Positions 3,858-21,582 of a stretch of DNA of 44,002 bases are shown in pieces; positions within the stretch are counted from its first letter, which is position 1, and each line of letters starts with the position of its first letter. The translations under genes were made by a program, and so were the position numbers. A model generated the notes under the pieces. The model searched no databases. It worked only from the letters and a program-made list of their open reading frames with translations, and was not told the DNA's origin. Source of the stretch: a virus (Duplodnaviria; Caudoviricetes); IMG/VR virus record IMGVR_UViG_3300011439_000027, positions 1 through 44,002 of that record; one strand, given 5' to 3'.

Positions 3858-3885
3858 CTATTATAGGCCATGTATAGCTCGCGCG
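3858..3885 (-). promoter_or_regulatory. Phage promoter motif copy 1, upstream of the VRR-NUC/exonuclease/RNAP operon
   Basis: CGCGAGCTATACATGGCCTATAATAG matches the 16-copy consensus; overlaps the HNH stop codon. Confidence 0.7.
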
Positions 3886-4391
3886 TAAGTAAGTTTTTCT
3901 GGTGTACCCATAGCGCCATAGCCTGGGAAGTAAGCTACGTCAGAGCCATACAATAGGTCAAATAATACAGAAGGAAGCATGAGTACAGCACTAGCCATTT
4001 GTCCGACGGATTCGAACACAAGACCTTTGTAATCGCTGTAGATCAATCGACGATCATGGACGTGCGGATATTGCATCTCCTTCATAAAGCAAACCACAAA
4101 CCATCTTGGCTTCCAGACCAAGTTATCTGCGGCGCAGTTAGCTCTATCTCCGTCGCGATGGAGAATCGAAGTGTTGGGATCTTCGGATTCAGGCAAGAAC
4201 GTCTCGGCTACTAAGCGAGGCAGAGCACGAGTTGTCGTTCTCCTAGCAGATCTGAGATCTACAGTATACCAACCGTTAGTTGGGTTTCGAGTAGCCTTAA
4301 GTATCCTCCCTGTATGGTTGTTGCGAACACGACCGTAGTTACTGACGCTATAAACAGGGTGATCCTCGATTACCCTGAATTCTTCCTCCAT
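3861..4391 (-). CDS. NUMOD4-HNH homing-type endonuclease
   Basis: YSVSNYGRVRN (NUMOD4) and LVAETFL...HRDGDRANCAADNLVW (HNH_3-like). Confidence 0.8.
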   Translation of the reverse strand: MEEEFRVIEDHPVYSVSNYGRVRNNHTGRILKATRNPTNGWYTVDLRSARRTTTRALPRLVAETFLPESEDPNTSILHRDGDRANCAADNLVWKPRWFVVCFMKEMQYPHVHDRRLIYSDYKGLVFESVGQMASAVLMLPSVLFDLLYGSDVAYFPGYGAMGTPEKLTYARAIHGL

Positions 4392-4554
4392 GGTGCTCCA
4401 ATCTGCCAAATCCAAAAATTTTGGCCAAAAAGCTTTTTACAAAACACGTTCTTTGTAAGTAAACTTACCTTAATTACTTACTAAAGTCAGGCGATATAAA
4501 AGACTTTTGGGGTCGTTTTTGACAGAAATGGCAAGAACACTGCCGGACATGCCT

Positions 4555-4690
4555 GTTTTATACACATTAATACCGATGTGTTCCGTGCCCGTTTTATACA
4601 CATTGGTACCAGTATCACCCTATGCTTCCACCCAGACCCCATTTTATACACATTGATACCAGTATCGCCCGATGCTTCCACCCAGACCCT
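4555..4690. repeat. Tandem 50-bp direct repeats next to an AT-rich palindromic tract; candidate replication origin
   Basis: 4591-4640 and 4641-4690 are near-identical; partial third copy at 4555-4574. Confidence 0.75.
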
Positions 4691-5951
4691 AGATTGTCCT
4701 ATAATATGCCGATTCGTTGAACGACCTCTTTTCGTCCAGAGCCTCACCCACAGCTTTGTCAATTAACGACGTTCCTTTCAAAACGTAGTACCAAAGATCC
4801 ACATATGGGGTGTTTAGGCGATCGATCCTACCATGTGCCTGATGGTATAGTTTGTACGAGTATGGGAGGGAGTAGAAACACATCGCGTCAGTGGTCACGC
4901 AATTCCATCCCTCCGCACCCGCAGCGTATTGCACAAGATATACCCACCGATCGGTCTCCGGAATCGGCTCGTGTTTGTGTCCGTTCCACTCAGCTATCTG
5001 AAAACTGAACCTCTCGGGCGAGTTCTCGCTCATCGTCTGGGGGTCCAACAAGCTCTGGACAGACCCCGGGTGTTCTACATCCGTCAGCGTTCGTAACACC
5101 TCGAGCTCGTAGTCGAAGTTGTAGAACACAATGATGCGAGGGTGGACGGTTAATAATGACTGTACCGCTTCCAGTCTTGAGGAATGTGAGTTTACAACCT
5201 TCCTCATTACACGGAACAGCTCGGCTACGTCTCGCAATGGTTTGTTGTTGAACACGTCCCACTTACGTTTCACCACCTTAGCGAATAGTTCTTCATCATG
5301 GTCCACGATCATGTCCGTAGTATGCCTGATCGTGTGTGAGAGGTAGGGCATCTCTACCAGTAAGCTATTCCGTTGCCTTACAAGGCGATTCAGGCCGGTG
5401 TAACGGTCTACCTTGGGGAACTTGGAATACGTCCTGTAGACTACGTGCTCCCGTTTGAACGCTGTCGCGTTCTCGTAGAACCCGTTCGCGACGAAGACCG
5501 GGATGTAGTCAAGCCAAGTATCTCCCGGCGTGGCAGAGAGGAGGATCCAGCGATTGCGTCTAGATATTCTAATAAAGTTTTTGACCCACTTTCCGGAGCC
5601 GACGAGTCGCTGCTCGTCGAAGATGAAGAAGGCACCGTGTATGTTCTGGTACTTGGCGATGTTGTTCCAGGAGTCGACTGTGAGTACTCCCTTTCCTCCA
5701 TCTCCTTCAGGAAAGCCATAATCCCTAAAGACTCCGTACTTGGCGAACTCCCCTTCCCATTCAAGGGAGTCGCGCTTCTTGGCTGTCGTGATGACGATGA
5801 CTTGGCGGGGGGCTTCTTTTTCGACGTAGTAGACGACGGCCGTGAGCGACTTACCCGTGCCGACCCCACCCCAGAGGATGTTGCCGTTTGCGAGACGGTT
5901 GAGGGCGTCGCGCTGGTGAGGATAGAGAGCTCCAGTTGAGATCGGGTCCAC
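4689..5951 (-). CDS. SF2 (SNF2-like) DNA helicase
   Basis: GGVGTGKS Walker [27 protein letters not shown]. Confidence 0.9.
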
Positions 5952-6120
5952 GTGACATCCTCCTTCTGTCGTATCGCAATTGTATGTAGAAGTTCAGACC
6001 TCGTACCGAATCCAGGTACGAGCACAGTGGATACGGACGTGGACGTATGGACCGACTCAAAAGTTGTGTCCTCCTTGTCGAGGTATTCCCAAAGCAGCTG
6101 GTCGTAGATCGGTGTCATGA

Positions 6121-6342
6121 CTACCTCCAGTGGTCGCGTTCGTCGTTATCTGTTAAGAGAGTCTGCCAACGAACGATGTCCATACCTCGGTCAAGAGCAT
6201 GGTCTTGTTTGAAGCGGTCCTTTAGCTCCGATCCGCTGTGGTACTTCTTCAGTTCACACCTACCGTGGTAGCCGGTGTAGTTCGGCTCGAGCACAGCCGG
6301 ACACCTATTCCAGGGCGCTTTGTACCAGGGGAGATTAATCAT
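6121..6342 (-). CDS. Hypothetical protein (Cys/His-containing)
   Basis: 73-aa ORF packed between neighbours in operon orientation. Confidence 0.55.
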   Translation of the reverse strand: MINLPWYKAPWNRCPAVLEPNYTGYHGRCELKKYHSGSELKDRFKQDHALDRGMDIVRWQTLLTDNDERDHWR

Positions 6343-6412
6343 CCCAACGCCCCCAGTTCTTGACGACCAGGTAGATGAAAACGATGATGAACGTAGCGAT
6401 AAGACACTCCAT
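6335..6412 (-). CDS. 25-aa membrane peptide MECLIATFIIVFIYLVVKNWGRWDD
   Basis: AGGAGG RBS at 6417-6422; lies downstream of promoter copy 2; one hydrophobic helix; not in ORF track. Confidence 0.6.
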   Translation of the reverse strand: MECLIATFIIVFIYLVVKNWGRWDD

Positions 6413-6515
6413 GAATCCTCCTAGACGAAATAGTAGAGCCCTTGTGGGCTCGGGGTCTCATTATAGGCCATGTATAACCTGCGAGAAAACCAAGAGCCCT
6501 TTCGGGCCCGTGGTC

Positions 6516-6632
6516 TTACCTCAGAAAGCGGTGTCCAAATTTCTGGAACAGTAGTACGACGCATCCGCCGATGATCCCGCCGAGAATGACGAGTCCAACG
6601 ACTTGGGATGCCTGCAGTACTCGATCTAACAT
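6516..6632 (-). CDS. 38-aa membrane peptide (MLDRVLQASQVVGLVILGGIIGGCVVLLFQKFGHRFLR)
   Basis: Fills a promoter-RBS(GAAAGG)-terminator cassette; one TM helix. Confidence 0.7.
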   Translation of the reverse strand: MLDRVLQASQVVGLVILGGIIGGCVVLLFQKFGHRFLR

Positions 6633-6718
6633 GGCGATACCTTTCTGTGGGTTTCATTATAGGCCATGTATTCAGCGCGAAAACTCAGAGCCCTTGTTAG
6701 GGGGCTCCGGTTTCTCCT

Positions 6719-6904
6719 TCAGGTGGTAGCGGCTTTCTCCGCGCTTTCGATCAGGTTCTCGTAGCAGTCGATCTCGAACGTGACGGCTTCTTCCTCAGGT
6801 CGCTTCATGAATTCTTCAATTCCTTCATTCGATCTGACGAGTCGGTCCGCCTGCTTCGTGTAAAGGCTGTCTACAATCTCCGTCATTTCGGCGAGTGTAA
6901 GCAT
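6719..6904 (-). CDS. Small acidic hypothetical protein (cassette gene)
   Basis: AAGGAG RBS; own promoter and terminator. Confidence 0.75.
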   Translation of the reverse strand: MLTLAEMTEIVDSLYTKQADRLVRSNEGIEEFMKRPEEEAVTFEIDCYENLIESAEKAATT

Positions 6905-6993
6905 AGCTTCTCCTTAATAGGGGTCTCATTATAGGAGATGTTTTCCATGCGAGGACAAAAACCAGACTCCTTGTTAGGGAGCCTGGCGTGAGA

Positions 6994-7188
6994 CTACGCG
7001 GTGAAACGGGTGACGTATTCGTCGCTGTCCGGAACCTGAACTCGGGCTTCATCAGCAGTCAAGATGTGCGGCATGTCGTTCTCGTCCACGACGAAGAATG
7101 TTACTTCTTCCTCGATTTCGGGAACGACTCCACCATTCAAGGCTGCGATGAGCCAGAGGTGTTCACGAACGATTGCGATGAGGTTCAT
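6994..7188 (-). CDS. Small acidic hypothetical protein (cassette gene, starts MNLIAIV)
   Basis: GAAAGGA RBS; own promoter and terminator. Confidence 0.75.
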   Translation of the reverse strand: MNLIAIVREHLWLIAALNGGVVPEIEEEVTFFVVDENDMPHILTADEARVQVPDSDEYVTRFTA

Positions 7189-7272
7189 CGGTCTTCCTTT
7201 CGTAGGGGGTCTCATTATAGGACAAGTAGAATATGCGAGGCAAAACTCAGAGCCCTTGTGGGGCTCCAAGTC

Positions 7273-7461
7273 TTAGGCCTCCTGCTCGATCTTCAGAATG
7301 CTCGGGTGAGTCTCGATGAAGCGACGTTGCGCCTGCCTACCAGACTCACGTGCGATGATGATCACTGCTGTAGCGATTGCTACAATAACAGTCATCTCGT
7401 ACGGGCTGGCAAGAATAAGCGTAATTGGTCGGCCTCCATCGGGATTAGTCACATGTCGCAT
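7273..7461 (-). CDS. Small membrane protein (cassette gene, starts MRHVTNP)
   Basis: GAAAGGA RBS; hydrophobic VIVAIATAVIII segment. Confidence 0.7.
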   Translation of the reverse strand: MRHVTNPDGGRPITLILASPYEMTVIVAIATAVIIIARESGRQAQRRFIETHPSILKIEQEA

Positions 7462-7546
7462 GGTCTTCCTTTCGGTAGGGGTCTCATTAGAGGATATGTG
7501 ATCCACGCGAAAAACCAGAGCCCTTGTGGGGGACTCTGGCGCCTTT

Positions 7547-7741
7547 CTACTCGAAGCGGATGATCTCGTCGTCTTCATCGTCCTGAAGTCTGTCAAGCTC
7601 CTCGGCCGTGATCACGATGGACTGCATGTCGATGTCGCAGAGGACGTAGTAAACTACGCCTTCAACGATTTCGAAATTAGGTACATCGAGAATTGGCTTG
7701 AGGAACTCTTCACTTCCGGGCTTGATTCTGAACGCGAACAT
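7547..7741 (-). CDS. Small acidic hypothetical protein (cassette gene)
   Basis: AAGGAG RBS; own promoter and terminator; resembles 6994..7188. Confidence 0.75.
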   Translation of the reverse strand: MFAFRIKPGSEEFLKPILDVPNFEIVEGVVYYVLCDIDMQSIVITAEELDRLQDDEDDEIIRFE

Positions 7742-7822
7742 TCAATCTCCTTAGTAGTTGGGGTCTCATTAGAGGCCATGTAGGATCTGCGAAAAACTAG
7801 AGCCCTTGTTAGGGGCCCTAGC

Positions 7823-8047
7823 CTACTCCGTCTCTTCGGGTCCACTCAGTCTGGCAAGCAACTTCCGCATCCGCTCGGGGTTATTCGCGACGTCATTGTA
7901 GCCACGCTGGTATCCTTCCATCTCTGCCTCCGCAAGCGCCTCCTGGTGGATTTGCTGTTGGACTCTTCTGATGGTCGTATTACCGACGTAAGCTCCGATG
8001 ACGCCCGCTGTAACTCCGATCACGATTGCGACAGTCTTGTCATCCAT
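7823..8047 (-). CDS. Small membrane-anchored protein (starts MDDKTV)
   Basis: GAAAGGA RBS; N-terminal TM then GYQRGY. Confidence 0.75.
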   Translation of the reverse strand: MDDKTVAIVIGVTAGVIGAYVGNTTIRRVQQQIHQEALAEAEMEGYQRGYNDVANNPERMRKLLARLSGPEETE

Positions 8048-8123
8048 GATTGGTCCTTTCAATAGGGGGTCTCATTATAGGCTATGTAAAAACCAGAGCC
8101 CTTGGGGGGCTCTGATCTGAGGT

Positions 8124-8351
8124 TTACCTCTGGCTGAATTCCGGGGACACAGCGTGCTGAACAAACTGCTGCTCGTAGCGCTCGTATCCGTCCTTGCACC
8201 CTTGGATGTGGCCGTTGTTGTAGGCGACCTGCTGTTCGATCATGCGATCTAGTTTCAGGTTCTGCTTTAGAACTCGGTCCATAACCAAGGTAGTAGTGAC
8301 GGCTACGACTGCTCCGGCAACGGCTGCTACAGCAGTGCTTGGGATGTCCAT
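8124..8351 (-). CDS. Small membrane-anchored protein (starts MDIPST)
   Basis: GAAAGGA RBS; N-terminal TM then GxxxG repeats. Confidence 0.75.
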   Translation of the reverse strand: MDIPSTAVAAVAGAVVAVTTTLVMDRVLKQNLKLDRMIEQQVAYNNGHIQGCKDGYERYEQQFVQHAVSPEFSQR

Positions 8352-8416
8352 AGTCTTCTTCCTTTCGGTAGGTTTGGGTCTCATTATAGGCCATGTAAAC
8401 CTTGCGTCCGAAAGTC

Positions 8417-8533
8417 AAAAACAAAACCATAAGGTCTTACTTTACTCTGGTGCGTAAAGCAGTGTGCTTATGGTCTTGGGCGATTATTGGAGTAGCCCCG
8501 CAGTTGCATAGGTGCGGGATCTTTACCATTCTC
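8417..8533 (-). ncRNA. Putative small structured RNA A
   Basis: Between promoter copy 8531-8560 and a T-tract; stems 8497-8502/8513-8518, 8426-8433/8467-8474 and 8440-8445/8454-8459; only a 30-codon ORF without RBS. Confidence 0.5.
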
Positions 8534-8564
8534 TCACTATAGCACGTGTAAATCCTGCGAGGTG

Positions 8565-8652
8565 AAAAACGAAAGACCGTGTTTCAGGGTACACGGCCTC
8601 TCGCTATTACCCCCGTCAAGAGTTCACAGTCATCTGCTCCCCTCTCAACGGG
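8565..8652 (-). ncRNA. Putative small structured RNA B
   Basis: Promoter 8650-8680; 11-bp stem 8612-8622/8642-8652 (with G-U pairs); terminator hairpin 8570-8603; no convincing ORF. Confidence 0.55.
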
Positions 8653-8684
8653 TTCATTATAGGGCATGTAAACCATGCGAGGGC

Positions 8685-8798
8685 AAAACTAGATGCCTTG
8701 CAAGTTGCATCTAGTCTTGGGAATCTCGGACACGGTGATTAGGGCCTTAGGCACTCTTTTTCATGTGCGGTCGGCTATACTTCCGTATGGGATTCTCC
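8685..8798 (-). ncRNA. Putative small structured RNA C
   Basis: Promoter 8796-8825; ATAC-GGAA-GTAT GNRA hairpin; terminator ACTAGATGC..GCATCTAGT plus TTTT; no RBS-led ORF. Confidence 0.5.
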
Positions 8799-8977
8799 TC
8801 ATTAGAGGATATGTAAGTTTTGCGATTAGAAAGCAGGGAGAGGTGTGTGCGCCCGGATAGGCCCCCTCCCTACTTCCTCCCTGGATCGGTCCCGTGATTA
8901 GCGGGGCTTCATCGTACTCACCTCCTGACCTCTCCTGGAAGAGGATAAACGCACGGCTTATCCTCAACCAGCAAGGG

Positions 8978-9331
8978 TCACGAAACAGGCGTTACCGACT
9001 TGGCTTCTGGAGCGTGAAGCTGGGTCTTCATGACCTCGGGGCGATCGTCAACAACCTTTTCAGGCGCGAGCACGAAGCCGCGGACGAAGGCCTTCTTGGT
9101 GTAGATCTTGTGACCCACGTCGGTCTTGAGCACGTAGTCGCCGACGTATGCCATCGTCTGGCGATCGCGCAGCGGACGAATCGTGGCGACCTTGATGTAC
9201 AGCTTCATCTCATCGTCGGTCTGGAGAGTTCCGCCGCACCAGGTAGCAACCTCTTCGATGTTCTCGGCAGTCACCGGGACGGCCTGGACGTACAGAGGAA
9301 CGTGGGTGTAGCGCTGAACTTCGAGTGTCAT
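8978..9331 (-). CDS. Conserved phage hypothetical protein
   Basis: VQAVPVTAENIEEVATWCGG...AYVGDYVLK pattern typical of small phage proteins; good codon usage. Confidence 0.75.
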   Translation of the reverse strand: MTLEVQRYTHVPLYVQAVPVTAENIEEVATWCGGTLQTDDEMKLYIKVATIRPLRDRQTMAYVGDYVLKTDVGHKIYTKKAFVRGFVLAPEKVVDDRPEVMKTQLHAPEAKSVTPVS

Positions 9332-9531
9332 GTCACTTCTTCCTGTTTAGGTTTTGGTATTACTTCTTGGGGAGGAGTTGATCGAGCTGGGCGAGGATAT
9401 GAGCGTACGGGTTCTTCCGCAGCTGTGCCTTCGACGGAGCGAAGGTGTAATCGCTCTGGGGCTTGCTCTTCCCGGAGATACCAGGAGCCGTCCGTACCCG
9501 AGTATCAGACGGTCGCGTCTTGTTCGCTTGC

Positions 9532-9768
9532 TCAGTCCGGTGGCGGGTTTGCTGCTTTGCGTAGCGAATCGAGCCTCTCTGCTTCTTGGATAGCTCGGTG
9601 TATTTCGGCTGCAGTCCTTGCACGCTGTTCTCCCAACTTGATGATTGGTTGATTCTTTTGAAGCGCCACGAACTGATCGCTGGCTTTCTTGGCTCCCCAC
9701 ACGAAGCCCAGGATAAAGCTCGTGATTCCGAGCATGAATAGAAGTGCGAGCCAACCCAGAGTGTTCAT
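9532..9768 (-). CDS. Membrane protein
   Basis: N-terminal TM helix, coiled-coil tail; AGGAGG RBS. Confidence 0.7.
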   Translation of the reverse strand: MNTLGWLALLFMLGITSFILGFVWGAKKASDQFVALQKNQPIIKLGEQRARTAAEIHRAIQEAERLDSLRKAANPPPD

Positions 9769-9971
9769 TTTTCGTCCTCCTTATATAAGGCAGTCACAAT
9801 TAGATAGTCCATTCGAGCATTCCAGGACACATCCGCGACGATGTATCTCACCTCAAAGTCGTCGATCGCTTCACCCAATCTTGGGTAGACTGGGTGGCCG
9901 CAGCCTGTGATTCGGATGGGATAACGACGGTCTGGATGGTCTGGTCGTATCAGGACCAAATATGCGATCAC
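9765..9971 (-). CDS. Hypothetical protein
   Basis: Start and stop overlap both neighbours by 4 nt. Confidence 0.55.
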   Translation of the reverse strand: MIAYLVLIRPDHPDRRYPIRITGCGHPVYPRLGEAIDDFEVRYIVADVSWNARMDYLIVTALYKEDEK

Positions 9972-10495
9972 CGCTCAATCGCCAGACGGTCCTCAACGAC
10001 CTCAGCGTCGATGTAGTCCCGACCTCCGCCGATCTCCGGAATATCGGAGTACTCACGCATGAGCTCGTCCTCATCCATGGTCACGAACATGGTCTTGAGA
10101 TATGCCGAGATCCCGTTCTCGCCACGGACAGCCCAGTGGTATGGGCGTACGATCATGTCGACCTTGGCGATATCGATCCAGTCGAGGACGTCCACCTCCA
10201 CCACGGACAGGTTGGTACGGCCCTTGGAGGATATGAGGGCGATCAGAGGCGGCCGACCCTTGAAGCTGACCGAGATCTTCATGTAGTGTTTGCCAGCGAC
10301 GCCCTCCTCTCGCTCCTTCAGCTGCTTGACGTTCCAGCCGTCCTTGAGGAGTGGCTCAACGAGTTCGTCTGGAATAACAACACAAAAGTTACGGTCCCCG
10401 GCTCGGTTGTATTGCGTCTCGCGCCCTTCGAAGTTCCTGAAACCTCCGCCCAGAAGCTCCGCATCACGAAAGGTGATGTTGTCGTCATTGTTCAT
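9968..10495 (-). CDS. Putative single-stranded DNA-binding protein (starts MNNDDN)
   Basis: FRNFEG...GDRNFCV...AYLKTMFV with acidic C-terminus; near the replicase. Confidence 0.65.
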   Translation of the reverse strand: MNNDDNITFRDAELLGGGFRNFEGRETQYNRAGDRNFCVVIPDELVEPLLKDGWNVKQLKEREEGVAGKHYMKISVSFKGRPPLIALISSKGRTNLSVVEVDVLDWIDIAKVDMIVRPYHWAVRGENGISAYLKTMFVTMDEDELMREYSDIPEIGGGRDYIDAEVVEDRLAIER

Positions 10496-10497
10496 TT

Positions 10498-10758
10498 TTA
10501 GTCTCCATGTCCTTGGTTGCCGCATCCGTCCCCAGCGTGGTGTTCTCCAGTAAGAGACGGACAAAGCAGATGATGGCCGAGAGGAGCATTTGCGAGATTT
10601 CTTGGGTCCTGGAACCAGGGACAAGTGCATAGGTCCAGGTTCTTGACCCTCTCGTTACGCCACTCTCGGTGGAACGAAACGATTGCCTCGCGAAGAGCGT
10701 TGGTGGCTTTGACGTTAGCCTCAACTGCTTTTCGAAAACGTTCTACTTCACTCACCAT
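10498..10758 (-). CDS. Hypothetical protein with Cys/His-rich C-terminus
   Basis: CTC...HHLLC...HH..C; packed in operon. Confidence 0.6.
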   Translation of the reverse strand: MVSEVERFRKAVEANVKATNALREAIVSFHREWRNERVKNLDLCTCPWFQDPRNLANAPLGHHLLCPSLTGEHHAGDGCGNQGHGD

Positions 10759-10764
10759 TGTGTA

Positions 10765-11091
10765 TCACCCATGTTCCGGGCAGTATGTGGAGCAGGAATG
10801 TCTCTCCACAGGATATGTCTCGATGTTGGGATCAAATCCGATGCTGAACTTGGCGCCGTCCGTACCCACGAGAGAGTCCATGACCGCGTCTGGGATACGA
10901 TCCCCTAATCGCACGAAGATCATGGTACCGTCGACGTCGGCCTCTCCGATGACGTGACGTTCGCCTAGGCCCGGATTTACCAGGTGACCGTCTTTGACCC
11001 ATACGGTAAGAGGAACAGTCTTCTTACCGAGATCCGGAATATAATCTTCCGGGTCATTCGCCCCAAACATGGGGATGTTAAGAACACTCAT
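10765..11091 (-). CDS. Hypothetical protein (starts MSVLNI)
   Basis: ATGA overlap with the upstream 37-aa gene; C-terminal CxxxCxxH. Confidence 0.6.
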   Translation of the reverse strand: MSVLNIPMFGANDPEDYIPDLGKKTVPLTVWVKDGHLVNPGLGERHVIGEADVDGTMIFVRLGDRIPDAVMDSLVGTDGAKFSIGFDPNIETYPVERHSCSTYCPEHG

Positions 11092-11201
11092 GGGAATTTC
11101 CTTCCGCGGATTTTTTCTAGGATTTCTATTTGGTTTGGACACCGGCCGAGCTCTTTGTATAGCTCCATGAATATGACGATCAGCATCTCGTCGCGACCCA
11201 T
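11088..11201 (-). CDS. 37-aa peptide MGRDEMLIVIFMELYKELGRCPNQIEILEKIRGRKFP
   Basis: Fills the gap between neighbours with an ATGA overlap; AGGGG RBS. Confidence 0.5.
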   Translation of the reverse strand: MGRDEMLIVIFMELYKELGRCPNQIEILEKIRGRKFP

Positions 11202-11209
11202 GTGAACCC

Positions 11210-15189: not shown

Positions 15190-15202
15190 CCCTCCTCCCG
15201 TT

Positions 15203-15727
15203 CTAGTTCAGCTCAGAGATATAGGCGAACAGCTGATGCCAGATTTCTACTTTCCTCTGGTCCACCTCGGCATGGTGAAGCGGGAACAACCCACCACTAC
15301 CGTCAGCTTCATACGTTCGCCAGATTACGCGATCGAGAACTCCGTCGATTTTATCCGAAGGATATAAACCCCTGTCTGTATAGTTTAGTTTGAGATTGTC
15401 TATTAGATGCCAGAACCAGTCCCGGGGCTCCCCCTCGCATTGGAAGGAGAGCCTCCGGGATATCCCGACAAGCAACTCGAGCATGGAACACCCGAGCTTC
15501 ATCCAATCTCGGTCGAGTTTTTTGATTCCGGACTGGTCGGCGAACTCGTGCCGCAGGCCCTTACCGTCTTCGACGCGGTTATCGTCATTAGGGACAACCC
15601 AAACGAACTCCTTGGTGAAGAGCTGTCTGAGTAGATTCCAATAGGTGCGGGAGGGATTCTTGGTTTCCGGGTCGCCGACTTGACTGTAGAGCCATACGAA
15701 ATATAGCTCGTCAAGCGGCTCGCTCAT
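15203..15727 (-). CDS. Conserved phage hypothetical protein
   Basis: 174-aa ORF with DDNRVEDG, CSMLE and GGLFPL..EIWHQ; directly upstream of the replicase. Confidence 0.75.
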   Translation of the reverse strand: MSEPLDELYFVWLYSQVGDPETKNPSRTYWNLLRQLFTKEFVWVVPNDDNRVEDGKGLRHEFADQSGIKKLDRDWMKLGCSMLELLVGISRRLSFQCEGEPRDWFWHLIDNLKLNYTDRGLYPSDKIDGVLDRVIWRTYEADGSGGLFPLHHAEVDQRKVEIWHQLFAYISELN

Positions 15728-15729
15728 GG

Positions 15730-16470
15730 TTACTCCGGTCGGAACTTTGTTCGACGAACCTTCTCTTGAGACGTGGCGATACCATGAATGACGTCTCCGA
15801 AAGCTCCGTCGTGGAGGGTGACCTCATAGTCCGCCCCGAGCTTCTCGTTACGGATATAGATCAGGCGTGGATCCTTGGACCGATAGCCGAAACGATCCAG
15901 GTTGGACTCTCCGACGACCATCTCAGGGTCATCGATTGGGACTTCGCCGTCATCCAGCAGGGTGTCGTCCATCATGAAATAGGTAAGACACACCGTGTGG
16001 TACTTCGGGTCTTCTCCGAATTCTTCCACGCCGATGATGTAGGGCTTCTTGGACGATCGTTCTTTGATCTCCTGCGCCCAGGCGATCTCCTCGTCCTCAT
16101 CCGGCTCTTCCTCGTCGCGGAAGACATTGCGCTGAATGAGAGTCGGCTTGGCTGGACTGATTGGTGCATCCGGACCGTATCGCAGCTCTGCGACAGCCTT
16201 ACGGAGAACTCCCGGGCCTACGGCGACGTTAGCTTCTCGCTCCTCGGCAGTCTCAGCCACAGCCTGGGGGTCCAACTGTGCTCCAGGTACGCGTAGCATC
16301 ATCCCCTGCTTAGCGAGTTGGTTCAGATGAGCCCTGGTGGAGGATATCTCTTCCGCGAGGCGCTCGTCATAAGACTTCTCGAGCTGCTTCCGGCTAATGT
16401 AGTACCCAGCAGCAGCCCCCGCTGCCGCAGAGACCACAGCGGTGAGCCCGACTAGAATATAGCGATTCAC
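15730..16470 (-). CDS. Membrane-anchored acidic protein (GTG start, MNRYILV)
   Basis: N-terminal TM; C-terminal PYII...LTYF..DDTL...IYIRNE. Confidence 0.75.
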   Translation of the reverse strand: MNRYILVGLTAVVSAAAGAAAGYYISRKQLEKSYDERLAEEISSTRAHLNQLAKQGMMLRVPGAQLDPQAVAETAEEREANVAVGPGVLRKAVAELRYGPDAPISPAKPTLIQRNVFRDEEEPDEDEEIAWAQEIKERSSKKPYIIGVEEFGEDPKYHTVCLTYFMMDDTLLDDGEVPIDDPEMVVGESNLDRFGYRSKDPRLIYIRNEKLGADYEVTLHDGAFGDVIHGIATSQEKVRRTKFRPE

Positions 16471-16538
16471 GTGCAGATCCCGTCTCTTGGGCAATCGCCG
16501 ATGTCACAGCGGTCGCAGTCGCATTTGCACTCTTGCAT
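16467..16538 (-). CDS. 23-aa Cys-rich peptide MQECKCDCDRCDIGDCPRDGICT
   Basis: GAAGG RBS; GTGA stop/start overlap with the next gene; fills the gap exactly. Confidence 0.5.
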   Translation of the reverse strand: MQECKCDCDRCDIGDCPRDGICT

Positions 16539-16546
16539 GGGTGCCT

Positions 16547-17470
16547 TCAAATCTTGTCGTAGATGACACCGTCGACGTTGAAGTCGAGCCAGACCGCGTC
16601 TTCTACCCCGTGGGCAAAGCGCAGACCGGACTCGCGGTCGCCGACGAATATGCCGAAGTCGACGTAGTTGTCGCCGCATTTGTCGTGTTGTGGCGTTCCG
16701 TCGCACTGGTCGTACAGCCATCCCACGACCTGACCAGCTGGCGAACGATCCATGCCGAGCATGTCGTAGACCTCGTTCAGGAACAGATGACCACGTGCCC
16801 GAAGAAGATCGTTGCAGTACTGCTGCTGCGACGCGAGGAAGAACTGGTTGTAACGATTCGGACCCTTCTGCCAGTTCTTGTTTGTCTTGTCGAAGCAACG
16901 CGCGTAGATGGAGCCGCCCTTGGGCATGACGTCCTTGACCTTGACGACCTTCTGCTTCTCGTCGTCGAAGACCTCTCGTTCCTCGAGACCGTAGCGAAGC
17001 TCTCGCTCCTTCTCGGGACCGTAGGCCGCCTCGACCCGTGCGCGGTAGTCCCGGAATCCCTTGTCGAGAAGAGCGTAAGCTGCAGTGAGCGCTGCGTTGC
17101 GCTTGGTCAGGATGACGTGTGAGCCGGTGAGTGCTGCGACAGACAGGATGCCGAGGCCGAGAGCCGGAGCATAAACACGACCGATCTTGACTGCGGTCTG
17201 AATATAGACGACCGCCTTGTCCCTCTGGTACATGTCCTCGCTGTAGCTGGCCAGCTCTGAGATGTTGGCCACATGCAGCTTCTCGAGCTTCTCCTGGGTG
17301 TCGACGAGAATATCGTCCAGCTTCAGCGTTGCGCGGCTGGCGAGAACTGCCGTACCCACAACACCCAAGATGCCGGCGGAGAACAGAAGTACTGGGGAAT
17401 GCTTCTGGAGCTTCAGAACCTGACGACCAACCTTACTGGTCACCAGGCGCTTGATTGGCTTGAGATTCAC
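16547..17470 (-). CDS. Conserved membrane-associated phage protein (DUF6353-like)
   Basis: KHSPVLL, two hydrophobic segments, AAYALL, GHLFLNEVYDMLG...VGW, LDFNVDG. Confidence 0.8.
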   Translation of the reverse strand: MNLKPIKRLVTSKVGRQVLKLQKHSPVLLFSAGILGVVGTAVLASRATLKLDDILVDTQEKLEKLHVANISELASYSEDMYQRDKAVVYIQTAVKIGRVYAPALGLGILSVAALTGSHVILTKRNAALTAAYALLDKGFRDYRARVEAAYGPEKERELRYGLEEREVFDDEKQKVVKVKDVMPKGGSIYARCFDKTNKNWQKGPNRYNQFFLASQQQYCNDLLRARGHLFLNEVYDMLGMDRSPAGQVVGWLYDQCDGTPQHDKCGDNYVDFGIFVGDRESGLRFAHGVEDAVWLDFNVDGVIYDKI

Positions 17471-17471
17471 G

Positions 17472-17600
17472 TCAAGCTACCTTTCGTTTGAGTCGCAAAT
17501 ATGTTGCATGGACCTGGGCGTCCGTCATCTTGTCGACTTTCGCCCACCACTTCTTGTACGGAAATATCTGCTTCAGGAGCTCTCGCTCCGACATGGACAT
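17472..17600 (-). CDS. 42-aa basic protein MSMSERELLKQIFPYKKWWAKVDKMTDAQVHATYLRLKRKVA
   Basis: Fills the intergenic gap in operon orientation; not in ORF track. Confidence 0.65.
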   Translation of the reverse strand: MSMSERELLKQIFPYKKWWAKVDKMTDAQVHATYLRLKRKVA

Positions 17601-17609
17601 GACATTGCC

Positions 17610-18254
17610 TTATTCGAGTTCTACGGTCTTCGGGAGATCGAGGACATACCCCTCACGAATATGGACCGCTCGACTGCCCTCAAGGCTTGTCCAGCCGTAG
17701 TTCACGTCAGTGTGCTTGGGGTCCACGCCGCAGAGATCGTAGAGATCGGCGACTGTCACCTGATTGAACTTGGAGAGGAGCTCGTACATATGATCCAGGA
17801 CGTCGTTTGCTTCCTGACGAGTGTCGAGCACGACCTCCTGGAACTCGTGACGTCTCCTGGCACGTGGACTCAGCGATCGCTCTTCTTCCTTACGCCAAGG
17901 CGTGGTGTTACTGGAGAACCGGTTGTAGCTGACGTGTCCGCCAGCTCCGCTCGAGCGGAAAGCCGACCGTCCGCCTCGCCCACCACCGCGTCCGCCGAAG
18001 AGAGTACGCTCCAGACCCTCGCGACCCAGATCCAGGATCATGTCCTTGGCTGCCGGAATGAGAACCTCCAGCAGCAAATATCGCCCGACACTCTGTGCAT
18101 CTTCGGCGATGAAGGTTTCCGCGAAGCGACGCATCAAGGGTTTGCGTCGGGTCTTTACCACTCCGCTGATAACCTTCTCTACCCTCTTCTCCGGCTCAGG
18201 CTTGGATGCGGGCTTAACCATCCGGCTGTTACCGGGAAGTTGAATCTCTTCCAT
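17610..18254 (-). CDS. Conserved phage protein with RGG-rich linker
   Basis: 214 aa; VTVADLYDLCG...YGW C-terminal module. Confidence 0.8.
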   Translation of the reverse strand: MEEIQLPGNSRMVKPASKPEPEKRVEKVISGVVKTRRKPLMRRFAETFIAEDAQSVGRYLLLEVLIPAAKDMILDLGREGLERTLFGGRGGGRGGRSAFRSSGAGGHVSYNRFSSNTTPWRKEEERSLSPRARRRHEFQEVVLDTRQEANDVLDHMYELLSKFNQVTVADLYDLCGVDPKHTDVNYGWTSLEGSRAVHIREGYVLDLPKTVELE

Positions 18255-18267
18255 GACACCTCTTCCA

Positions 18268-18302
18268 TAAAAAGTAAAACCAGAACCCTTGCGGGCCTGG
18301 CT
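18268..18302 (-). terminator. Intrinsic terminator of the cassette family
   Basis: CCAGGCCC-GCAA-GGGTTCTGG followed by TTTTACTTTT. Confidence 0.65.
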
Positions 18303-18308
18303 CGAGAC

Positions 18309-18554
18309 TTAAACGGTGTCCTTTTGACGGTGCTTCTGGAACGAGGCAATCAACGAATCGATCTTCTTCTCCGACCAGTCGACACTTCGGTCTGCAGCGA
18401 TACATCCGAGTACGTAACTCGCGATGATAATGGCGGCCTTATCGGTCACCTTATCAGGGCTTGTGTTGTTCTTGATGATCTCCTTGACTACTGTGTAGGT
18501 GGCGGATCCGACGACAAATCCGACGATTGCTTTCGCAACTTCAGTCTTAGTCAT
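18309..18554 (-). CDS. Small membrane protein (starts MTKTEVAK)
   Basis: AAAGGAG RBS; own promoter 18574-18606 and terminator. Confidence 0.75.
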   Translation of the reverse strand: MTKTEVAKAIVGFVVGSATYTVVKEIIKNNTSPDKVTDKAAIIIASYVLGCIAADRSVDWSEKKIDSLIASFQKHRQKDTV

Positions 18555-18573
18555 GGGGTCTCCTTTGTTTGTA

Positions 18574-18606
18574 GGGGTCTCATTAAAGGATATGTAAAGC
18601 TTGCGA
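18574..18606 (-). promoter_or_regulatory. Phage promoter motif copy
   Basis: TCGCAAGCTTTACATATCCTTTAATGAGACCCC. Confidence 0.8.
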
Positions 18607-18718
18607 TGTCGGGCGCAATTTACTGGCACTCTCGGCTGTCGTTGAAGGCTTGCGTCCGGAATGAGGAATATCGGTGAGACCCGTACCTCCATGCCTCCGC
18701 TTGCCCCCCTGCATCGCG

Positions 18719-18814
18719 TTACTTGATGATCCACCAGATGATGAGTGGGATGAACCACAGCCCACCCGTGCAGCAAACCATCACCGTGTGGAACATAACC
18801 CATCCCAGCTTCAT
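18719..18814 (-). CDS. 31-aa membrane peptide (MKLGWVMFHTVMVCCTGGLWFIPLIIWWIIK)
   Basis: AGGAG RBS; hydrophobic, with TGGLW motif. Confidence 0.65.
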   Translation of the reverse strand: MKLGWVMFHTVMVCCTGGLWFIPLIIWWIIK

Positions 18815-18822
18815 GACATCTC

Positions 18823-19455
18823 CTAGGATTCGTGGGCCCTCTGCATGATGAGAACCAGCAGAGGCTTGGGTACGGCGCCCTTGTGACGACCGACCAGAGC
18901 GTGGAACTCGGAGGCCGGCATGTCGATGAGCTCCTCGTTGGTGTATTCCAGTAGACCCTTGTAAACCGGAGGAATCTCGGCGATGTCCGGGATAGGAACA
19001 TCGGGGGTCGGAACGACGACATCGACTTCCTTCTCCGGATATGGCACGCCGTGGTCGGCGAACGCCTGCCTGGTGATTCCCTCGACGTCCACCTGGGAGA
19101 TCAGATCGGCCGGCATGATCTTCGCGACGAATTCGGCCTGACCACCGGGATTCTTGAGAAGGTCGATGAACAGCTCCGAATATGCTTCGGTCTGCATGAA
19201 GTGGTTGACGATCTCGGGCGACTTCACGAACCGGTCTCCCTCACGGCGACCGACCGAGACACGGATGAGCTCCTTGATGAAGGTCATGACCTTCCCGCGG
19301 TCCTTCACCATGTCCAGATTCATCATCTGCTGACGAAGACCGCCCTCAGGAGCCATCTCCATCTCGATGAGCTCGGCCTTGGTCAGGTTGAAGTGGAACT
19401 CTTCGGTGACAGTCTGACCGTCGAGGTTGGTGTACGTGATGCTCTTCTTATGCAC
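18823..19455 (-). CDS. Conserved phage hypothetical protein
   Basis: KKSITYTNLDG..EEFHFNLTKAELIEM...FMQTEAYSELF. Confidence 0.75.
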   Translation of the reverse strand: MHKKSITYTNLDGQTVTEEFHFNLTKAELIEMEMAPEGGLRQQMMNLDMVKDRGKVMTFIKELIRVSVGRREGDRFVKSPEIVNHFMQTEAYSELFIDLLKNPGGQAEFVAKIMPADLISQVDVEGITRQAFADHGVPYPEKEVDVVVPTPDVPIPDIAEIPPVYKGLLEYTNEELIDMPASEFHALVGRHKGAVPKPLLVLIMQRAHES

Positions 19456-19497
19456 GTTCTTACCCTTCGAGATATGAGTTAGATGGATTGGTGAGTG

Positions 19498-19638
19498 TTA
19501 CTCGTCTTCGGAAGCCTCGATCTCCTCTGGCGTCTCCTTGACCGCCGAGAGGATGATGATCAGGCCGGTCAGCATGAAAGTGACCGCGGTGGGGACGAGA
19601 ACCTTGTTGGACTTGATGAACTTGAGCACGTTACGCAT
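19498..19638 (-). CDS. Small membrane protein (starts MRNVLKF)
   Basis: AAGGAG RBS; one TM; acidic tail. Confidence 0.7.
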   Translation of the reverse strand: MRNVLKFIKSNKVLVPTAVTFMLTGLIIILSAVKETPEEIEASEDE

Positions 19639-19660
19639 TAGATCTCCTTGGGTTATCGGC

Positions 19661-20422
19661 TTAGCCGAACTTGTGATAGTTCCGGATTGGAGCGACGCGG
19701 TAATCCACCGCAAGGCAGGGCCTGTTGTTCTTACCCAGGACAGCGCTGAACTTCAGATCCAGTGGGCTGTCGTTTGTCCAACCGACCTCGTCCGACAGGG
19801 CTGTGGTCTTCAACCCGATCAGGTGGTAGAAATCGGTCAGAGAGGCGTACCCATCGTGGAGGATCGTGCGGTTGAGGTCGTTCTCTGCTCTCCTTAGGAG
19901 TTCGATGTCTCCTTCGAAATATCGGTCAGTGAACACCTCATAACACAATCCTTCATCCGAGGATATAACCACAGCACTAGACGCTAGCACTCGTTCTTGA
20001 GCGATTTCGTCTCGAGCCTGCTGTTCTTTCTTCTCGCCGATTTTGTCGACGATCTTCTCTCGGTACTCCGTGAAGGCTTTCTCGGTTACGGAATATGCTG
20101 CCGCGAGAGCCGCCGCGCGCCTGCTTCCGATCCGATTGGCACCGATGATAGCAGCGACAGTAAGGGTGGCTGTAGCTGCTGCTGGAATATAGAGCTTCCA
20201 GGTAAGTTTGATCTTCGCTTTCGCATCGAGACGAAGATGCGGAGTGTTTCCGATGGATCCTCTCTCAGCATAAAGGATTTCATCGGCCGCAAAGTACGAC
20301 GCTCTTCCGGTCAAATATGCCGTTGTCAGTGCGCCGGTCACCCCGATGGCAGTCAGGATGGTGGGCGAATTGTCCACAACAAGCTTCTCGAGCCGCTTTG
20401 CTAGCGAACTAATTGTGGACAT
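19661..20422 (-). CDS. Conserved membrane-associated protein (DUF6353-like, paralog of 16547..17470)
   Basis: NSPTILTAIG, AALAAAYSV, GYASLTDFYHLIG...VGW. Confidence 0.8.
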   Translation of the reverse strand: MSTISSLAKRLEKLVVDNSPTILTAIGVTGALTTAYLTGRASYFAADEILYAERGSIGNTPHLRLDAKAKIKLTWKLYIPAAATATLTVAAIIGANRIGSRRAAALAAAYSVTEKAFTEYREKIVDKIGEKKEQQARDEIAQERVLASSAVVISSDEGLCYEVFTDRYFEGDIELLRRAENDLNRTILHDGYASLTDFYHLIGLKTTALSDEVGWTNDSPLDLKFSAVLGKNNRPCLAVDYRVAPIRNYHKFG

Positions 20423-20576
20423 GGAAGCGATCTACCTCCTCGAAGCGTTCTTGTTGCGCTTTGGTTTCCTTGTCGAAGATCCGTCCCAGAACAAACGACA
20501 AGAACAGACCCATAGCCATAACTGCCACTATGGTTAAGCCGATGTACGTTTCCGCGCCGATATAGACGTCGGTCAT
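20409..20576 (-). CDS. Small membrane protein (starts MTDVYIG)
   Basis: GGAGGAG RBS; one TM. Confidence 0.65.
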   Translation of the reverse strand: MTDVYIGAETYIGLTIVAVMAMGLFLSFVLGRIFDKETKAQQERFEEVDRFHVHN

Positions 20577-20633
20577 CACTCCTCCTTTCCAAAAAAGTAA
20601 ACCCATAGTCCTTGGGGGACTAAGGGCTCCTCT

Positions 20634-20801
20634 TCACTCTGGGTCCGATGAATTCTTCTCGATGGCGCGCTGTACCATGACAGTTCCGACGATGCCGAGG
20701 ACGGTGGCTCCCGCCATCGCAGCTAGTTTGATGGCGAGCGCCTTTGCGTCAACGGTACCTTCGGAATCAGCTTTGGCCAGTGCGGCATTGATCTTTTCCA
20801 T
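20634..20801 (-). CDS. Small membrane protein (cassette gene, starts MEKINAA)
   Basis: AAAGGA RBS; promoter 20821-20853; terminator ~20591-20628. Confidence 0.7.
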   Translation of the reverse strand: MEKINAALAKADSEGTVDAKALAIKLAAMAGATVLGIVGTVMVQRAIEKNSSDPE

Positions 20802-20941
20802 TGGGTTTCCTTTGTTTGTAGGGGTCTCACTATAGACCATGTTTTTTCTGCGAGTTCTGTGGGAATTTCCCACCCGGGGAATTTTTGGAAAAGCAAAACC
20901 AGACTCCTTGGGGGAATCTGGCCTTGAGATTTACTCGGGGA

Positions 20942-21139
20942 TTACATGGTCCTGTACCTTGGTCGAGCGTGTTGGATGGATTGGTAGATTGCCTCGAACT
21001 CCTCGTGGGTGTACAGCATCGTCTCGGGTTCAGCCTCAGGCTTCTTCCGGACGATCGTTACACCGTTGAGGTCGTAAACGAGGGTCATCTCTACTTCTTC
21101 TCCATCGGCATTACGCGCGATTGTTGACACATGAATCAT
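20942..21139 (-). CDS. Small hypothetical protein (cassette gene, starts MIHVSTI)
   Basis: GAAAGGA RBS; own promoter and terminator. Confidence 0.7.
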   Translation of the reverse strand: MIHVSTIARNADGEEVEMTLVYDLNGVTIVRKKPEAEPETMLYTHEEFEAIYQSIQHARPRYRTM

Positions 21140-21253
21140 GATGGTCCTTTCTGTAGGGGGTCTCATTAAAGGATCTGTAGTTTTCGCGAGTCAAAAATAA
21201 GAGGGCATGCTGGATGCATACCCCCTCACTCTTCCTTAACGTTCGGGTTCGTT

Positions 21254-21532
21254 TTACCGTAGCTTCATCACGAAGGCCAGGGCTTTCGAGGTGACGACGT
21301 TTACTCTTTCGAATTGGAGGATCAGTATGATGCCGAGGATGTTTCCTCCGACGATCAACATGGTGTCTGGGCTGACACGCTGAATATGATTAGTTCTCAG
21401 CTTGTCGAGCTTACTCACCTGATCAATCATCAGGGGGGTTTCCTTGGGGTCGTACGTCTTCTCCGCAATCTGCTTGAGCAGTGCGTCGATAGCCTCGTCC
21501 AACTGGGTTGGTGGTTTGGGCTTTCGGAACAT
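21254..21532 (-). CDS. Membrane protein (cassette gene)
   Basis: AAAGGAG RBS; SPDTMLIVGGNILGIILILQFE. Confidence 0.75.
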   Translation of the reverse strand: MFRKPKPPTQLDEAIDALLKQIAEKTYDPKETPLMIDQVSKLDKLRTNHIQRVSPDTMLIVGGNILGIILILQFERVNVVTSKALAFVMKLR

Positions 21533-21582
21533 ACGTTCTCCTTTGTTAGGGTCTCATTATAGGAGATGTTAGGTTCGCGAAA

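Follow-up and report, generated by a model that had tools for sequence, protein, structure and literature searches.

A repeated phage motif proposed as the cognate promoter of a predicted single-chain RNA polymerase

The phage genome IMGVR_UViG_3300011439_000027 (complete, of the 1706/BI/AM/AU/CC/DJ type; its 44,002 nt are the window referred to below) carries a motif repeated 16 times and a gene for an 895-aa predicted polymerase, which raises the question of whose enzyme reads the repeats. The initial annotation took them to be the promoter of the 895-aa enzyme. We consider it probable that this is so, and that the repeats do not belong to the host enzyme: co-occurrence of motif and gene, confinement to prophages, loss of the TATAAT hexamer across a whole clade, lack of a -35 excess and a predicted two-barrel fold all support that reading.

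All 16 copies lie on the - strand, the coding strand, within 5 nt of where the initial annotation had placed them (Table 1). They score 28.5-48.1 with a position weight matrix (PWM; 20.0-46.2 on leave-one-out), and there is no 17th in the window, the next best site scoring 6.0 on the - strand and 8.5 on the +; across 50 order-3 Markov shuffles the best site had a mean score of 7.5 and a maximum of 13.6. The CGC box keeps its distance in 15 of the 16, the copy at 8067 being the exception already remarked. Five copies, as had also been reported, lack the equivalent of the sigma70 -11A (three TCTAAT, two TTTAAT), and two have TATAGT; the -11A column is thus the least conserved of the hexamer (11/16), the others reading T16, T16, A16, A14 and T16. 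Three of the five have an alternative TAnnnT (TATCCT) 5 bp upstream. The initial annotation saw conservation past the likely start (GAGACCC); the copy at 3853 has AGAAGG there instead.

Table 1. Positions of the motif copies and associated features in the window
Feature	Position	Strand	Remarks
Motif copy, TATAAT	21549..21580	-	directly after holin gene; predicted +1 21555; then 92-aa ORF 21532-21254
Motif copy, TTTAAT, no -11A	21158..21189	-	predicted +1 21164; 65-aa ORF next; hairpin and T tract upstream
Motif copy, TATAGT	20822..20853	-	predicted +1 20828; then 55-aa ORF
Motif copy, TTTAAT	18575..18606	-	predicted +1 18581; final copy ahead of 9.8-kb replication block
Motif copy, TCTAAT	8794..8825	-	predicted +1 8800; then 117-nt hairpin unit without ORF
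Motif copy, TATAAT	8649..8680	-	predicted +1 8655; then 92-nt hairpin unit without ORF
Motif copy, TATAGT	8529..8560	-	predicted +1 8535; then 116-nt hairpin unit without ORF
Motif copy, TATAAT	8376..8407	-	predicted +1 8382; then 75-aa ORF
Motif copy without CGC box	8067..8098	-	upstream hairpin adjoins ACA; predicted +1 8073; then 74-aa ORF
Motif copy, TCTAAT	7761..7792	-	predicted +1 7767; then 64-aa ORF
Motif copy, TCTAAT	7479..7510	-	predicted +1 7485; then 62-aa ORF
Motif copy, TATAAT, ACT for ACA	7207..7238	-	-35-like TTGCCT, 18-nt spacer; then 64-aa ORF
Motif copy, TATAAT	6921..6952	-	predicted +1 6927; then 61-aa ORF
Motif copy, TATAAT	6649..6680	-	predicted +1 6655; then 38-aa hydrophobic ORF
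Motif copy, TATAAT	6453..6484	-	predicted +1 6459; hairpin immediately after; final copy ahead of helicase gene
Motif copy	3853..3884	-	heads nuclease - exonuclease - polymerase - 82-aa gene block; predicted +1 3859
Hairpin and T-tract elements (14)	6489..21240	-	12 of 14 lie no more than 60 nt upstream of a copy
Single-chain two-barrel RNA polymerase candidate, 895 aa, PHROG 4291	289..2976	-	GADFDGD at 510-516
Genome-end element, GGGGG-N-CG(C/T)-N7-NNN-CCCCC	1..39	-	adjoins cohesive end, just before it

The non-structural genome consists of small hairpin-flanked cassettes, replication genes (among them a primase-polymerase and an SSB-like gene in the large block) and the polymerase operon. 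The structural arm (21583-43918) has no copy, as the initial annotation observed, and none of the hairpin and T-tract elements at an equal threshold. At two of these elements, with T tracts near 20596 and 18279, there is no copy, and a ribosome-binding site and ATG come immediately after; an SD sequence and ATG lie 24-32 nt downstream of 11 of the 16 motif copies. The leader of the copy heading the polymerase block folds as a hairpin, and a copy scoring at least 10 occupies the same place in 44 of 90 relatives, against none of 90 control regions. The genome-end element, absent from the initial annotation, keeps CGC-N7-(ACA/ACC/GCA) in relatives and is a candidate late promoter or terminase site.

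The 895-aa protein matches PHROG 4291 (E 0) and is 39-58% identical to proteins in 250 GenBank phage records. Clustered at 90% identity, its family comprises at least 7,999 groups; among cultured phages it has members in those of Streptomyces, Gordonia, Arthrobacter, Rhodococcus, Lactococcus and Faecalibacterium. D512-F-D-G-D516 and the preceding R465-x-P467 are invariant in a set of 114 sequences and in a second set of 12 diverse ones. The structure model (pLDDT 78, pTM 0.60) matches QDE-1 (E 3e-9), P74 gp62 (E 3e-7) and P23-45 gp64 (E 6e-7) in Foldseek, as well as RDR2, P23-45 gp96 and cellular beta', with TM-scores only about 0.3; on this model the protein is predicted to be a two-barrel RNA polymerase. 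The literature searched gave no report of template-dependent RNA synthesis by the family. HTH-like segments lie near residues 36-64, 83-110, 148-174 and 861-889; the second has a helix, (E/D)S(S/T)(V/I)R, that hardly varies across 47 proteins, and the N-terminal HTH region gave no structural match at E<=0.001. Co-variation of HTH and motif, a check proposed with the initial annotation, was inseparable from phylogeny. The N-terminus, which carries an LxHYG peptide, half-matches the DUF7211 peptides of head-module genes; a Pfam PF23847 search gave no match on the polymerase, and a record note reads 'similar to Lactococcus phage 1706_gp75, structural protein'.

On co-occurrence in related phages, a check that the initial annotation proposed, motif and polymerase gene go together in phages of two bacterial phyla. 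The polymerase is encoded by 46 of the 47 motif-bearing viral records of at least 40 kb (26/26 at >=90% completeness), and conversely CGC-N7-ACA-N5-T-N4-TRA occurs in 21 of 22 polymerase-bearing records, where it has 91 matches and the reversed control 6; neither count is independent of shared ancestry, there being no lineage member among those compared that had lost the gene. Over the lineage the motif takes the form CGC-N7-ACA-N5-(AT-rich hexamer)-RR, and at 242 sites in 33 mostly non-clostridial genomes its boxes are conserved at 0.99/0.97/0.97 (C/G/C) and 0.95/1.0/0.95 (A/C/A). A scan of 15 bacterial genomes (about 67 Mb) gave 96 matches, 93 of them grouped within a prophage or next to it: 81 lie within 31 kb of a polymerase gene and on its strand, 12 are on neighbouring contigs of two genomes, and 3 are isolated, against 2 in the control. 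Travelling with the polymerase gene in this way, a pattern not independent of shared ancestry, is what a cognate phage-polymerase promoter does.

The -10 element of sigma70/sigmaA promoters is TAnnnT, with -11A among its most conserved bases, and transcription starts 6-8 nt past it at a pyrimidine-purine step. The initial annotation argued against sigma70 from loss of -11A. Taken alone the argument is weak, because the A is kept at 219 of the 242 mostly non-clostridial sites, and 151 of the 242 match TATAAT at all six positions; joined with the clostridial prophages it is strong. There, in 51 clostridial-titled loci searched with a PWM that ignores five of the hexamer columns, we found 102 sites (86 unique), none on the opposite strand; among the 86, the CGC and ACA boxes stay fixed, TTTTAT accounts for 41 and TATAAT for 11, and -11A is present in only 25. 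Many single copies thus have the -11A of sigma70, and the motif class does not. The statement that no copy has a TTGACA-like -35 holds for 15 of the 16, the hexamer at 7219 having TTGCCT 18 nt upstream; lineage-wide, -35-like hexamers (16-19 bp) occur at 37 of 242 sites, against 37.2 +/- 4.1 at random positions, which is no excess. A TG extension is found at 16 of the 242; an alternative TAnnnT is not enriched (5/37 non-canonical against 30/205 canonical sites, p=1), and 32 lack a TAnnnT whichever nearby register is taken. Judged by its sequence, then, with the clostridial hexamer mostly TTTTAT and no -35 excess, the motif does not behave as a sigma70 promoter. Against our reading, the dominance of TATAAT outside the clostridial clade is sigma70-like, and would be explained only by ease of melting or dual use.

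Both the SD positions and the pyrimidine-purine steps favour a start immediately past the hexamer. In sites partly selected on the columns concerned, the step is present at the first base past the hexamer in 16/16 window copies and 241/242 sites, and at bases 6, 7 and 8 in 0, 1 and 2 of the 16 and 10, 14 and 47 of the 242. A start at base 7 would cut the SD (match of at least 5 nt) in 26 of 48 close genes, leaving at most 3 nt in 11 of the 48, a count without shuffle control in which roughly 4 of the 11 starts are questionable and the sites are likewise partly column-selected. Hairpin tests of this start were mixed: one gave no excess (z -1.0, -0.3); a second gave z -3.1 in one class and -0.7 overall, the upstream negative control being significant too (z -2.9); and orthologous leaders fold at -2.96 against -1.89 +/- 0.14 kcal/mol when shuffled, with no excess over swapped segments (z -1.1).

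We propose that the CGC box (-24..-22) and ACA box (-14..-12), one helical turn apart, are read by the polymerase's own HTH domains, that the hexamer (-6..-1) would be the melting region and not a sigma70 -10, and that transcription would start at the purine directly past it, GAGA or GAAA being the first bases transcribed. The motif would drive the non-structural genome, including the polymerase operon itself; the first enzyme would therefore probably be delivered by the virion, or arise from weak host transcription of the TATAAT copies. The structural genes would need a separate route. A fully host-independent circuit is a more speculative extension that we hold only tentatively: a sigma-free polymerase, delivered in the virion by its N-terminal head tag, would recognise through its own HTHs a tripartite promoter (CGC -24, ACA -14, start at AT|G) that stays the same in Clostridia, Lactococcus and Actinobacteria, and the G-rich variant at the genome end, of like geometry, would fire the structural genes only once the ends join.

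Redirection of host RNA polymerase by a phage is exemplified by T4 MotA/AsiA, in which the MotA box lies near -30. A comparable arrangement here, in which TATAAT would be a true -10 and CGC near -30 and ACA near -19 would bind a phage protein, strikes us as unlikely. Its activator might be the 895-aa protein, through its HTH part, or else a small protein that has escaped recognition. With TATAAT at -12..-7, CGC does fall at -30..-28, the MotA-box position; TATAAT is the dominant hexamer of the non-clostridial set; and a host-based route would solve the problem of a polymerase operon that carries the motif. The -10 is, however, not intact where clostridial prophages have TTTTAT beside unchanged boxes or where TAnnnT is missing from nearby registers; bases 6-8 past the hexamer are mostly pyrimidine; the 895-aa protein keeps an invariant catalytic loop and its predicted two-barrel fold; and HTH/sigma Pfam searches of 58 other window ORFs found no separate activator, many of the small ones being without family, so that one could hide.

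Improbable, in our judgement, is that the repeats are standard sigmaA/sigma70 promoters of the host, with a -10 only, duplicated along with each small-gene cassette, the polymerase serving other (late) genes or being no transcriptase. The genome notes for the Gordonia DJ phages Vardy and Conley (PMC9671010, PMC10868162) do read TATAAT, within a 43-50-bp intergenic motif, as a host sigma70 -10; one window copy has the -35-like hexamer; and YonO, in the available part of PMC5467207, transcribes late genes, the structural arm here having no copy. Such promoters would not account for a rigid CGC-N7-ACA in phages of two phyla that is at chance level in host chromosomes, for a hexamer whose weakest column, in the window and in clostridial sites alike, is -11, or for the lack of a -35 excess and the scarcity of TG extensions. 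That the repeat is instead a recombination boundary or operator-like site, shuffling or repressing small-gene cassettes, as a 32-bp intergenic AU repeat is read in the available part of the Giantsbane preprint (10.1101/2020.01.10.891226) and as the rapidly changing small genes flanked by copies might suggest, is very improbable given its single, coding-strand orientation (0/102 opposite), the terminator-like hairpin just upstream of 12 of the 16 copies, the SD-ATG downstream and the lone copy that precedes the conserved polymerase operon; any recombination between copies may be incidental.

If the repeats are, as we think probable, the polymerase's cognate promoter, the published host sigma70 reading would stand corrected, and a large polymerase family would acquire a precise promoter candidate, one that comes with natural variants and for which the first transcribed base is predicted. 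Were the host-independent circuit also true, a portable promoter would help explain the lineage's move between phyla and could provide an orthogonal expression system. The wider question is how single-chain enzymes related to cellular RNA polymerase locate their promoters in the absence of sigma, one left open for YonO in the available part of PMC5467207.

Polymerase and motif have each been published, the motif as a sigma70 -10 or recombination boundary; a link between them was not found in the literature searched. Koert et al. (bioRxiv 10.1101/842583) describe a putative RNA polymerase with DxDGD and HTHs at both ends in the 1706/FP_oengus/BI-AM-AU-AW-CC-DJ-EL group, which is the same family (PHROG 4291), in a text without the word 'promoter', a cognate element, a start site or a test. 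The Vardy and Conley motif resembles ours in being intergenic, upstream of small central genes and in containing TATAAT, and we find our motif upstream of such genes in DJ phage Zeph and AU phage Gordon; unlike the present analysis, the published DJ and AU accounts neither link their repeats to a phage polymerase nor trace them across phyla. YonO of SPbeta, as far as the available part of PMC5467207 describes it, is a DNA-dependent polymerase related to cellular enzymes, and its likeness to the 895-aa protein is one of description (a single chain of about 100 kDa); it differs in transcribing late genes as one operon, and its promoter sequence and need for a factor are left open there. In being multi-copy, of one orientation and fixed spacing, and private to the phage, the motif is like the promoters of P23-45, phiKZ and T7-type polymerases. 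The late promoter of the phiKZ non-virion polymerase, TATG (PMC12809450), overlaps the start, with +1 the G after TAT, which is the geometry predicted here (..AT|G); that enzyme, unlike ours, is multi-subunit with a sigma-like subunit, and its four-base consensus has no upstream boxes. P23-45 gp96 and gp64 (10.1101/2022.12.01.518664) are single-chain two-barrel polymerases, each with a private repeated motif upstream of mapped starts, and gp64 is among the best fold matches of the 895-aa protein, at only 12% identity; unlike them, the 895-aa protein has HTHs fused at both ends, and its putative promoter is tripartite, fixed in spacing and conserved across two host phyla.

All 16 copies of the repeat that the initial annotation had marked as a promoter are present, at most 5 nt from where it had placed them and all on the coding strand, with the consensus TCGCR-N5-WACAT-NN-CC-T(A/C/T)TA(A/G)T-GAGACCC. 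Their PWM scores run from 28.5 to 48.1 (leave-one-out, 20.0 to 46.2), against 6.0 (-) and 8.5 (+) for the next-best site in the window and a maximum of 13.6 in 50 Markov shuffles; the feature is real. The second hexamer base, the -11A of a sigma70-type reading, is A in 11 copies and is the least conserved of the hexamer, in line with the loss proposed for five copies; the copy at 8067 indeed has no CGC box, and the structural arm has no copy at all. The claim that a TTGACA-like -35 is absent stands for 15 copies and fails for one, which carries a -35-like TTGCCT. A hairpin and T tract lie at most 60 nt upstream of 12 copies. SD-led ORFs start 24-32 nt downstream of 11 and 59 nt downstream of the copy at 3853, and none is found within 120 nt of the other four. 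Three successive copies (8420-8800, -) each head an ORF-less unit of 92-117 nt that ends in a strong hairpin and T tract; these units are candidate small RNAs, and Rfam and tRNA searches of them gave no match. In ReqiPepy6 and one other relative's genome (G054) tRNA-like genes sit directly behind motif copies.

The 895-aa protein belongs to PHROG 4291 (E 0) and, at 39-58% identity, has counterparts in 250 GenBank phage records, the best being Streptomyces phage RosaAsantewaa and the others including phages of Arthrobacter, Gordonia, Rhodococcus and Microbacterium, Lactococcus 1706 and Faecalibacterium FP_oengus. GADFDGD and RxP are invariant in 114 homologues, and also in 12 diverse ones. The structure model (pLDDT 78, pTM 0.60) matches QDE-1 (E 3e-9), RDR2, P74 gp62 and P23-45 gp64 (E 3-6e-7) and, weakly, P23-45 gp96 and cellular beta', with TM-scores of about 0.3. 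Pfam HTH and sigma-region-4-like matches lie near residues 83-110, 148-174 and 861-889 and a PHROG HTH match at 36-64, the N-terminal HTH region alone giving no structural match; across 47 proteins the HTH2 helix hardly varies, and the same holds for the motif boxes. Residues 9-24 include an N-terminal LxHYG peptide resembling the first half of the DUF7211 peptides, LxH[YF]GV(R/K)GM(K/Q)WG, of 40 other ORFs, found in the window in two head-module genes (41517 and 39046, -). Judged by its sequence this peptide is possibly a capsid-loading tag; the Pfam PF23847 profile gives no match to the polymerase.

Motif and polymerase travel together whichever is taken first. De novo search recovered the same architecture in sequence L001, RosaAsantewaa, ReqiPepy6, Circum, Zeph, LibertyBell and Lactococcus 1706; of the 12 sequences searched, 4 failed to yield it. 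An exact pattern, run against the viral collection, matched 169 stretches, spread over 35 of its 64 parts; 46 of the 47 contigs of at least 40 kb that were counted, from 51 listed, encode the protein, as do all 26 that are at least 90% complete. The one without a polymerase match (G027, the record behind locus L113; 43,769 bases, 84% complete) is probably incomplete. Starting from the gene, 21 of 22 loci on long contigs (from 80 kept of 520, plus one more) carry CGC-N7-ACA-N5-T-N4-TRA, with 91 matches against 6 in the control. With 75 sites of seven genomes as its seed, a PWM found 242 sites in 33 genomes, at least two of them in 30. A copy scoring at least 10 precedes the polymerase start by about 0.9 kb in 44 of 90 loci, whereas none of the 90 control regions has one; in many of the other 46 loci a visibly degenerate copy occupies the same position. 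These counts reflect common descent and are not independent tests. A pattern adapted to the variants seen in prophages gave 96 matches (control, 2) in 15 bacterial genomes that have a prophage polymerase gene (about 67 Mb in all). Of these matches, 81 lie within 31 kb of that gene on the same contig and strand, 12 cluster on other contigs of two genomes, resembling other prophages' copies, and 3 are isolated; one genome has no match. The motif is thus private to the phage in those genomes. Locus L011 (FP_oengus) has a different repeated word, GAmTGATATTT, in about 15 copies near gene starts, and at several sites in clostridial prophages a similar GTGATATTT comes after the SD.

SigmaA requires -11A. 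TATAAT in 151 of 242 sites of the mostly non-clostridial set, and -11A in 219, count against a non-sigma70 reading and favour the use of host polymerase, whether aided by a phage activator or not. Aid by an activator we regard as unlikely; no HTH or sigma-like match was found in the 32 + 26 other window ORFs. A plain host promoter is more doubtful still: -35-like hexamers are no commoner than chance predicts (37 of 242, against 37.2), and only 25 of 86 unique clostridial sites have -11A. These sites (102 in all, none on the opposite strand) were found with a PWM blind to five hexamer columns in 51 of 80 genome loci, picked because their record titles are clostridial. Their hexamers are chiefly TTTTAT (41), TATAAT (11), TATTAT (9) and CTTTAT (5), while CGC (1.0/0.99/0.93), ACA (0.94/1.0/0.98), the last hexamer T (0.98) and the next G (0.94) are kept. 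The closest relative (G020, enzyme 75% identical) has CCTAAT, CTTAAT, TCTAAT and TTTAAT, RosaAsantewaa has TTAAAT in 4 of 7 sites, genome G056 has AATAGT, and TAnnnT is absent from every nearby register at 32 of the 242 sites. The base pattern indicates that the motif does not need a sigma70 -10. That the repeat is a recombination boundary is highly improbable. With a predicted polymerase family, co-occurrence, confinement to prophages and hexamer loss, the motif is likely to be the cognate promoter of the 895-aa enzyme, as initially proposed.

A sigma70 start is expected at bases 6-8 after the hexamer. Both bases directly after it are purines in 242 of 242 sites, and a pyrimidine-purine step is seen at that point in all 16 window copies and at 241 of the 242 sites, though these columns entered site selection; at bases 6, 7 and 8 the step occurs in 0, 1 and 2 window copies and in 10, 14 and 47 of the 242. 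Of 322 sites taken together, 64 are followed by a start codon at 11-24 nt, 48 of them with an SD match of at least 5 nt; a start at base 7 would cut into 26 of these SDs, and 11 would be left with at most 3 nt (this count lacks a shuffled comparison, and about 4 of those 11 starts are doubtful). Hairpin tests were mixed. Bases 1-6 show no excess pairing in one; a second gave z -3.1 in 97 non-GAGACCC sites and -0.7 in all 207 (upstream control, -2.9). In the leaders of 39 orthologous polymerase operons the gain from bases 1-6 is -2.96 kcal/mol; shuffling of the downstream sequence brings it to -1.89 +/- 0.14. Upstream segments bring no extra gain, and swapped segments give z -1.1. From the steps and SD positions we predict +1 at the first purine after the hexamer, which would place CGC at -24 to -22 and ACA at -14 to -12, one turn apart. 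Both in the window (3801-3859) and in most relatives the leader of the polymerase operon forms a hairpin, with a T tract often coming after it; this is possibly an attenuator limiting the enzyme's own expression.

We think it probable that the phage enzyme binds the CGC and ACA boxes through its HTHs, opens the DNA at the AT-rich hexamer and begins transcription at the purine. The cassettes, the replication block and the enzyme's own operon would be expressed in this way. The virion could supply the first enzyme molecules (the ReqiPepy6 record annotates the Lactococcus 1706 homologue as a structural protein), and weak host use of TATAAT copies is another possible source. The window is the complete 44,002-base record, and nearly every one of its genes is on the - strand. 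At 20596 and 18279 (-), terminator-like hairpins with T tracts are followed directly by SD and ATG; no motif copy lies between them and the essential replication genes, so read-through is implied, and this may be polymerase-specific.

Features of the window and their positions
Feature	Position	Strand	Remark
Lysin, terminase, portal, capsid-protease, tail genes, holin	43.9-21.6 kb	-	
Small genes		-	downstream of holin, before primase-polymerase
Primase-polymerase	11431-15189	-	
More small genes, helicase, HNH, nuclease, exonuclease		-	in this order after primase-polymerase
Two tandem 50-bp repeats (92% alike), partial third	4550-4690		between helicase and HNH genes; AT-rich stretch follows; candidate replication origin
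Weak TATAAT site	4700		opposite orientation, near the tandem repeats
895-aa polymerase gene	289-2976	-	82-aa gene after it
GGGGG...CCCCC inverted repeat around CG(C/T)-N7-(ACA/ACC/GCA)	1-39	-	genome right end, before cohesive end

The genome-end element has the same geometry as the motif, and 27 of 62 non-redundant regions keep its CGC-N7-(ACA/ACC/GCA), shuffled sequence giving 0.04; the element may be a late promoter for the structural genes, or only a terminase site. The single-stranded overhang itself seems to be missing from both ends of the window.

Repeated elements were reportedly described in ReqiPepy6 and Poco6 by Summer in 2011. The polymerase was proposed by Koert et al. (10.1101/842583), in the accessible part of which the word 'promoter' does not occur. 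The Vardy and Conley announcements (PMC9671010, PMC10868162) describe, in the parts available, a motif of 50 or 43 bp whose TATAAT is labelled 'sigma70', and the Giantsbane preprint, likewise in part, a 32-bp boundary repeat, which we compare with the motif by description. The accessible portions of PMC5513430, PMC13313380, PMC9671017, PMC11385150, PMC7302621 and PMC5759034 hold nothing on the motif. Enzyme and motif are thus each in print, and no paper linking them was found in searches of main texts in an open-access library. For comparison we take, from the available parts of each source, YonO (PMC5467207), the Thermus phage P23-45 polymerases (10.1101/2022.12.01.518664) and the late start of phiKZ, TAT|G (PMC12809450), which the predicted start geometry of the motif resembles.
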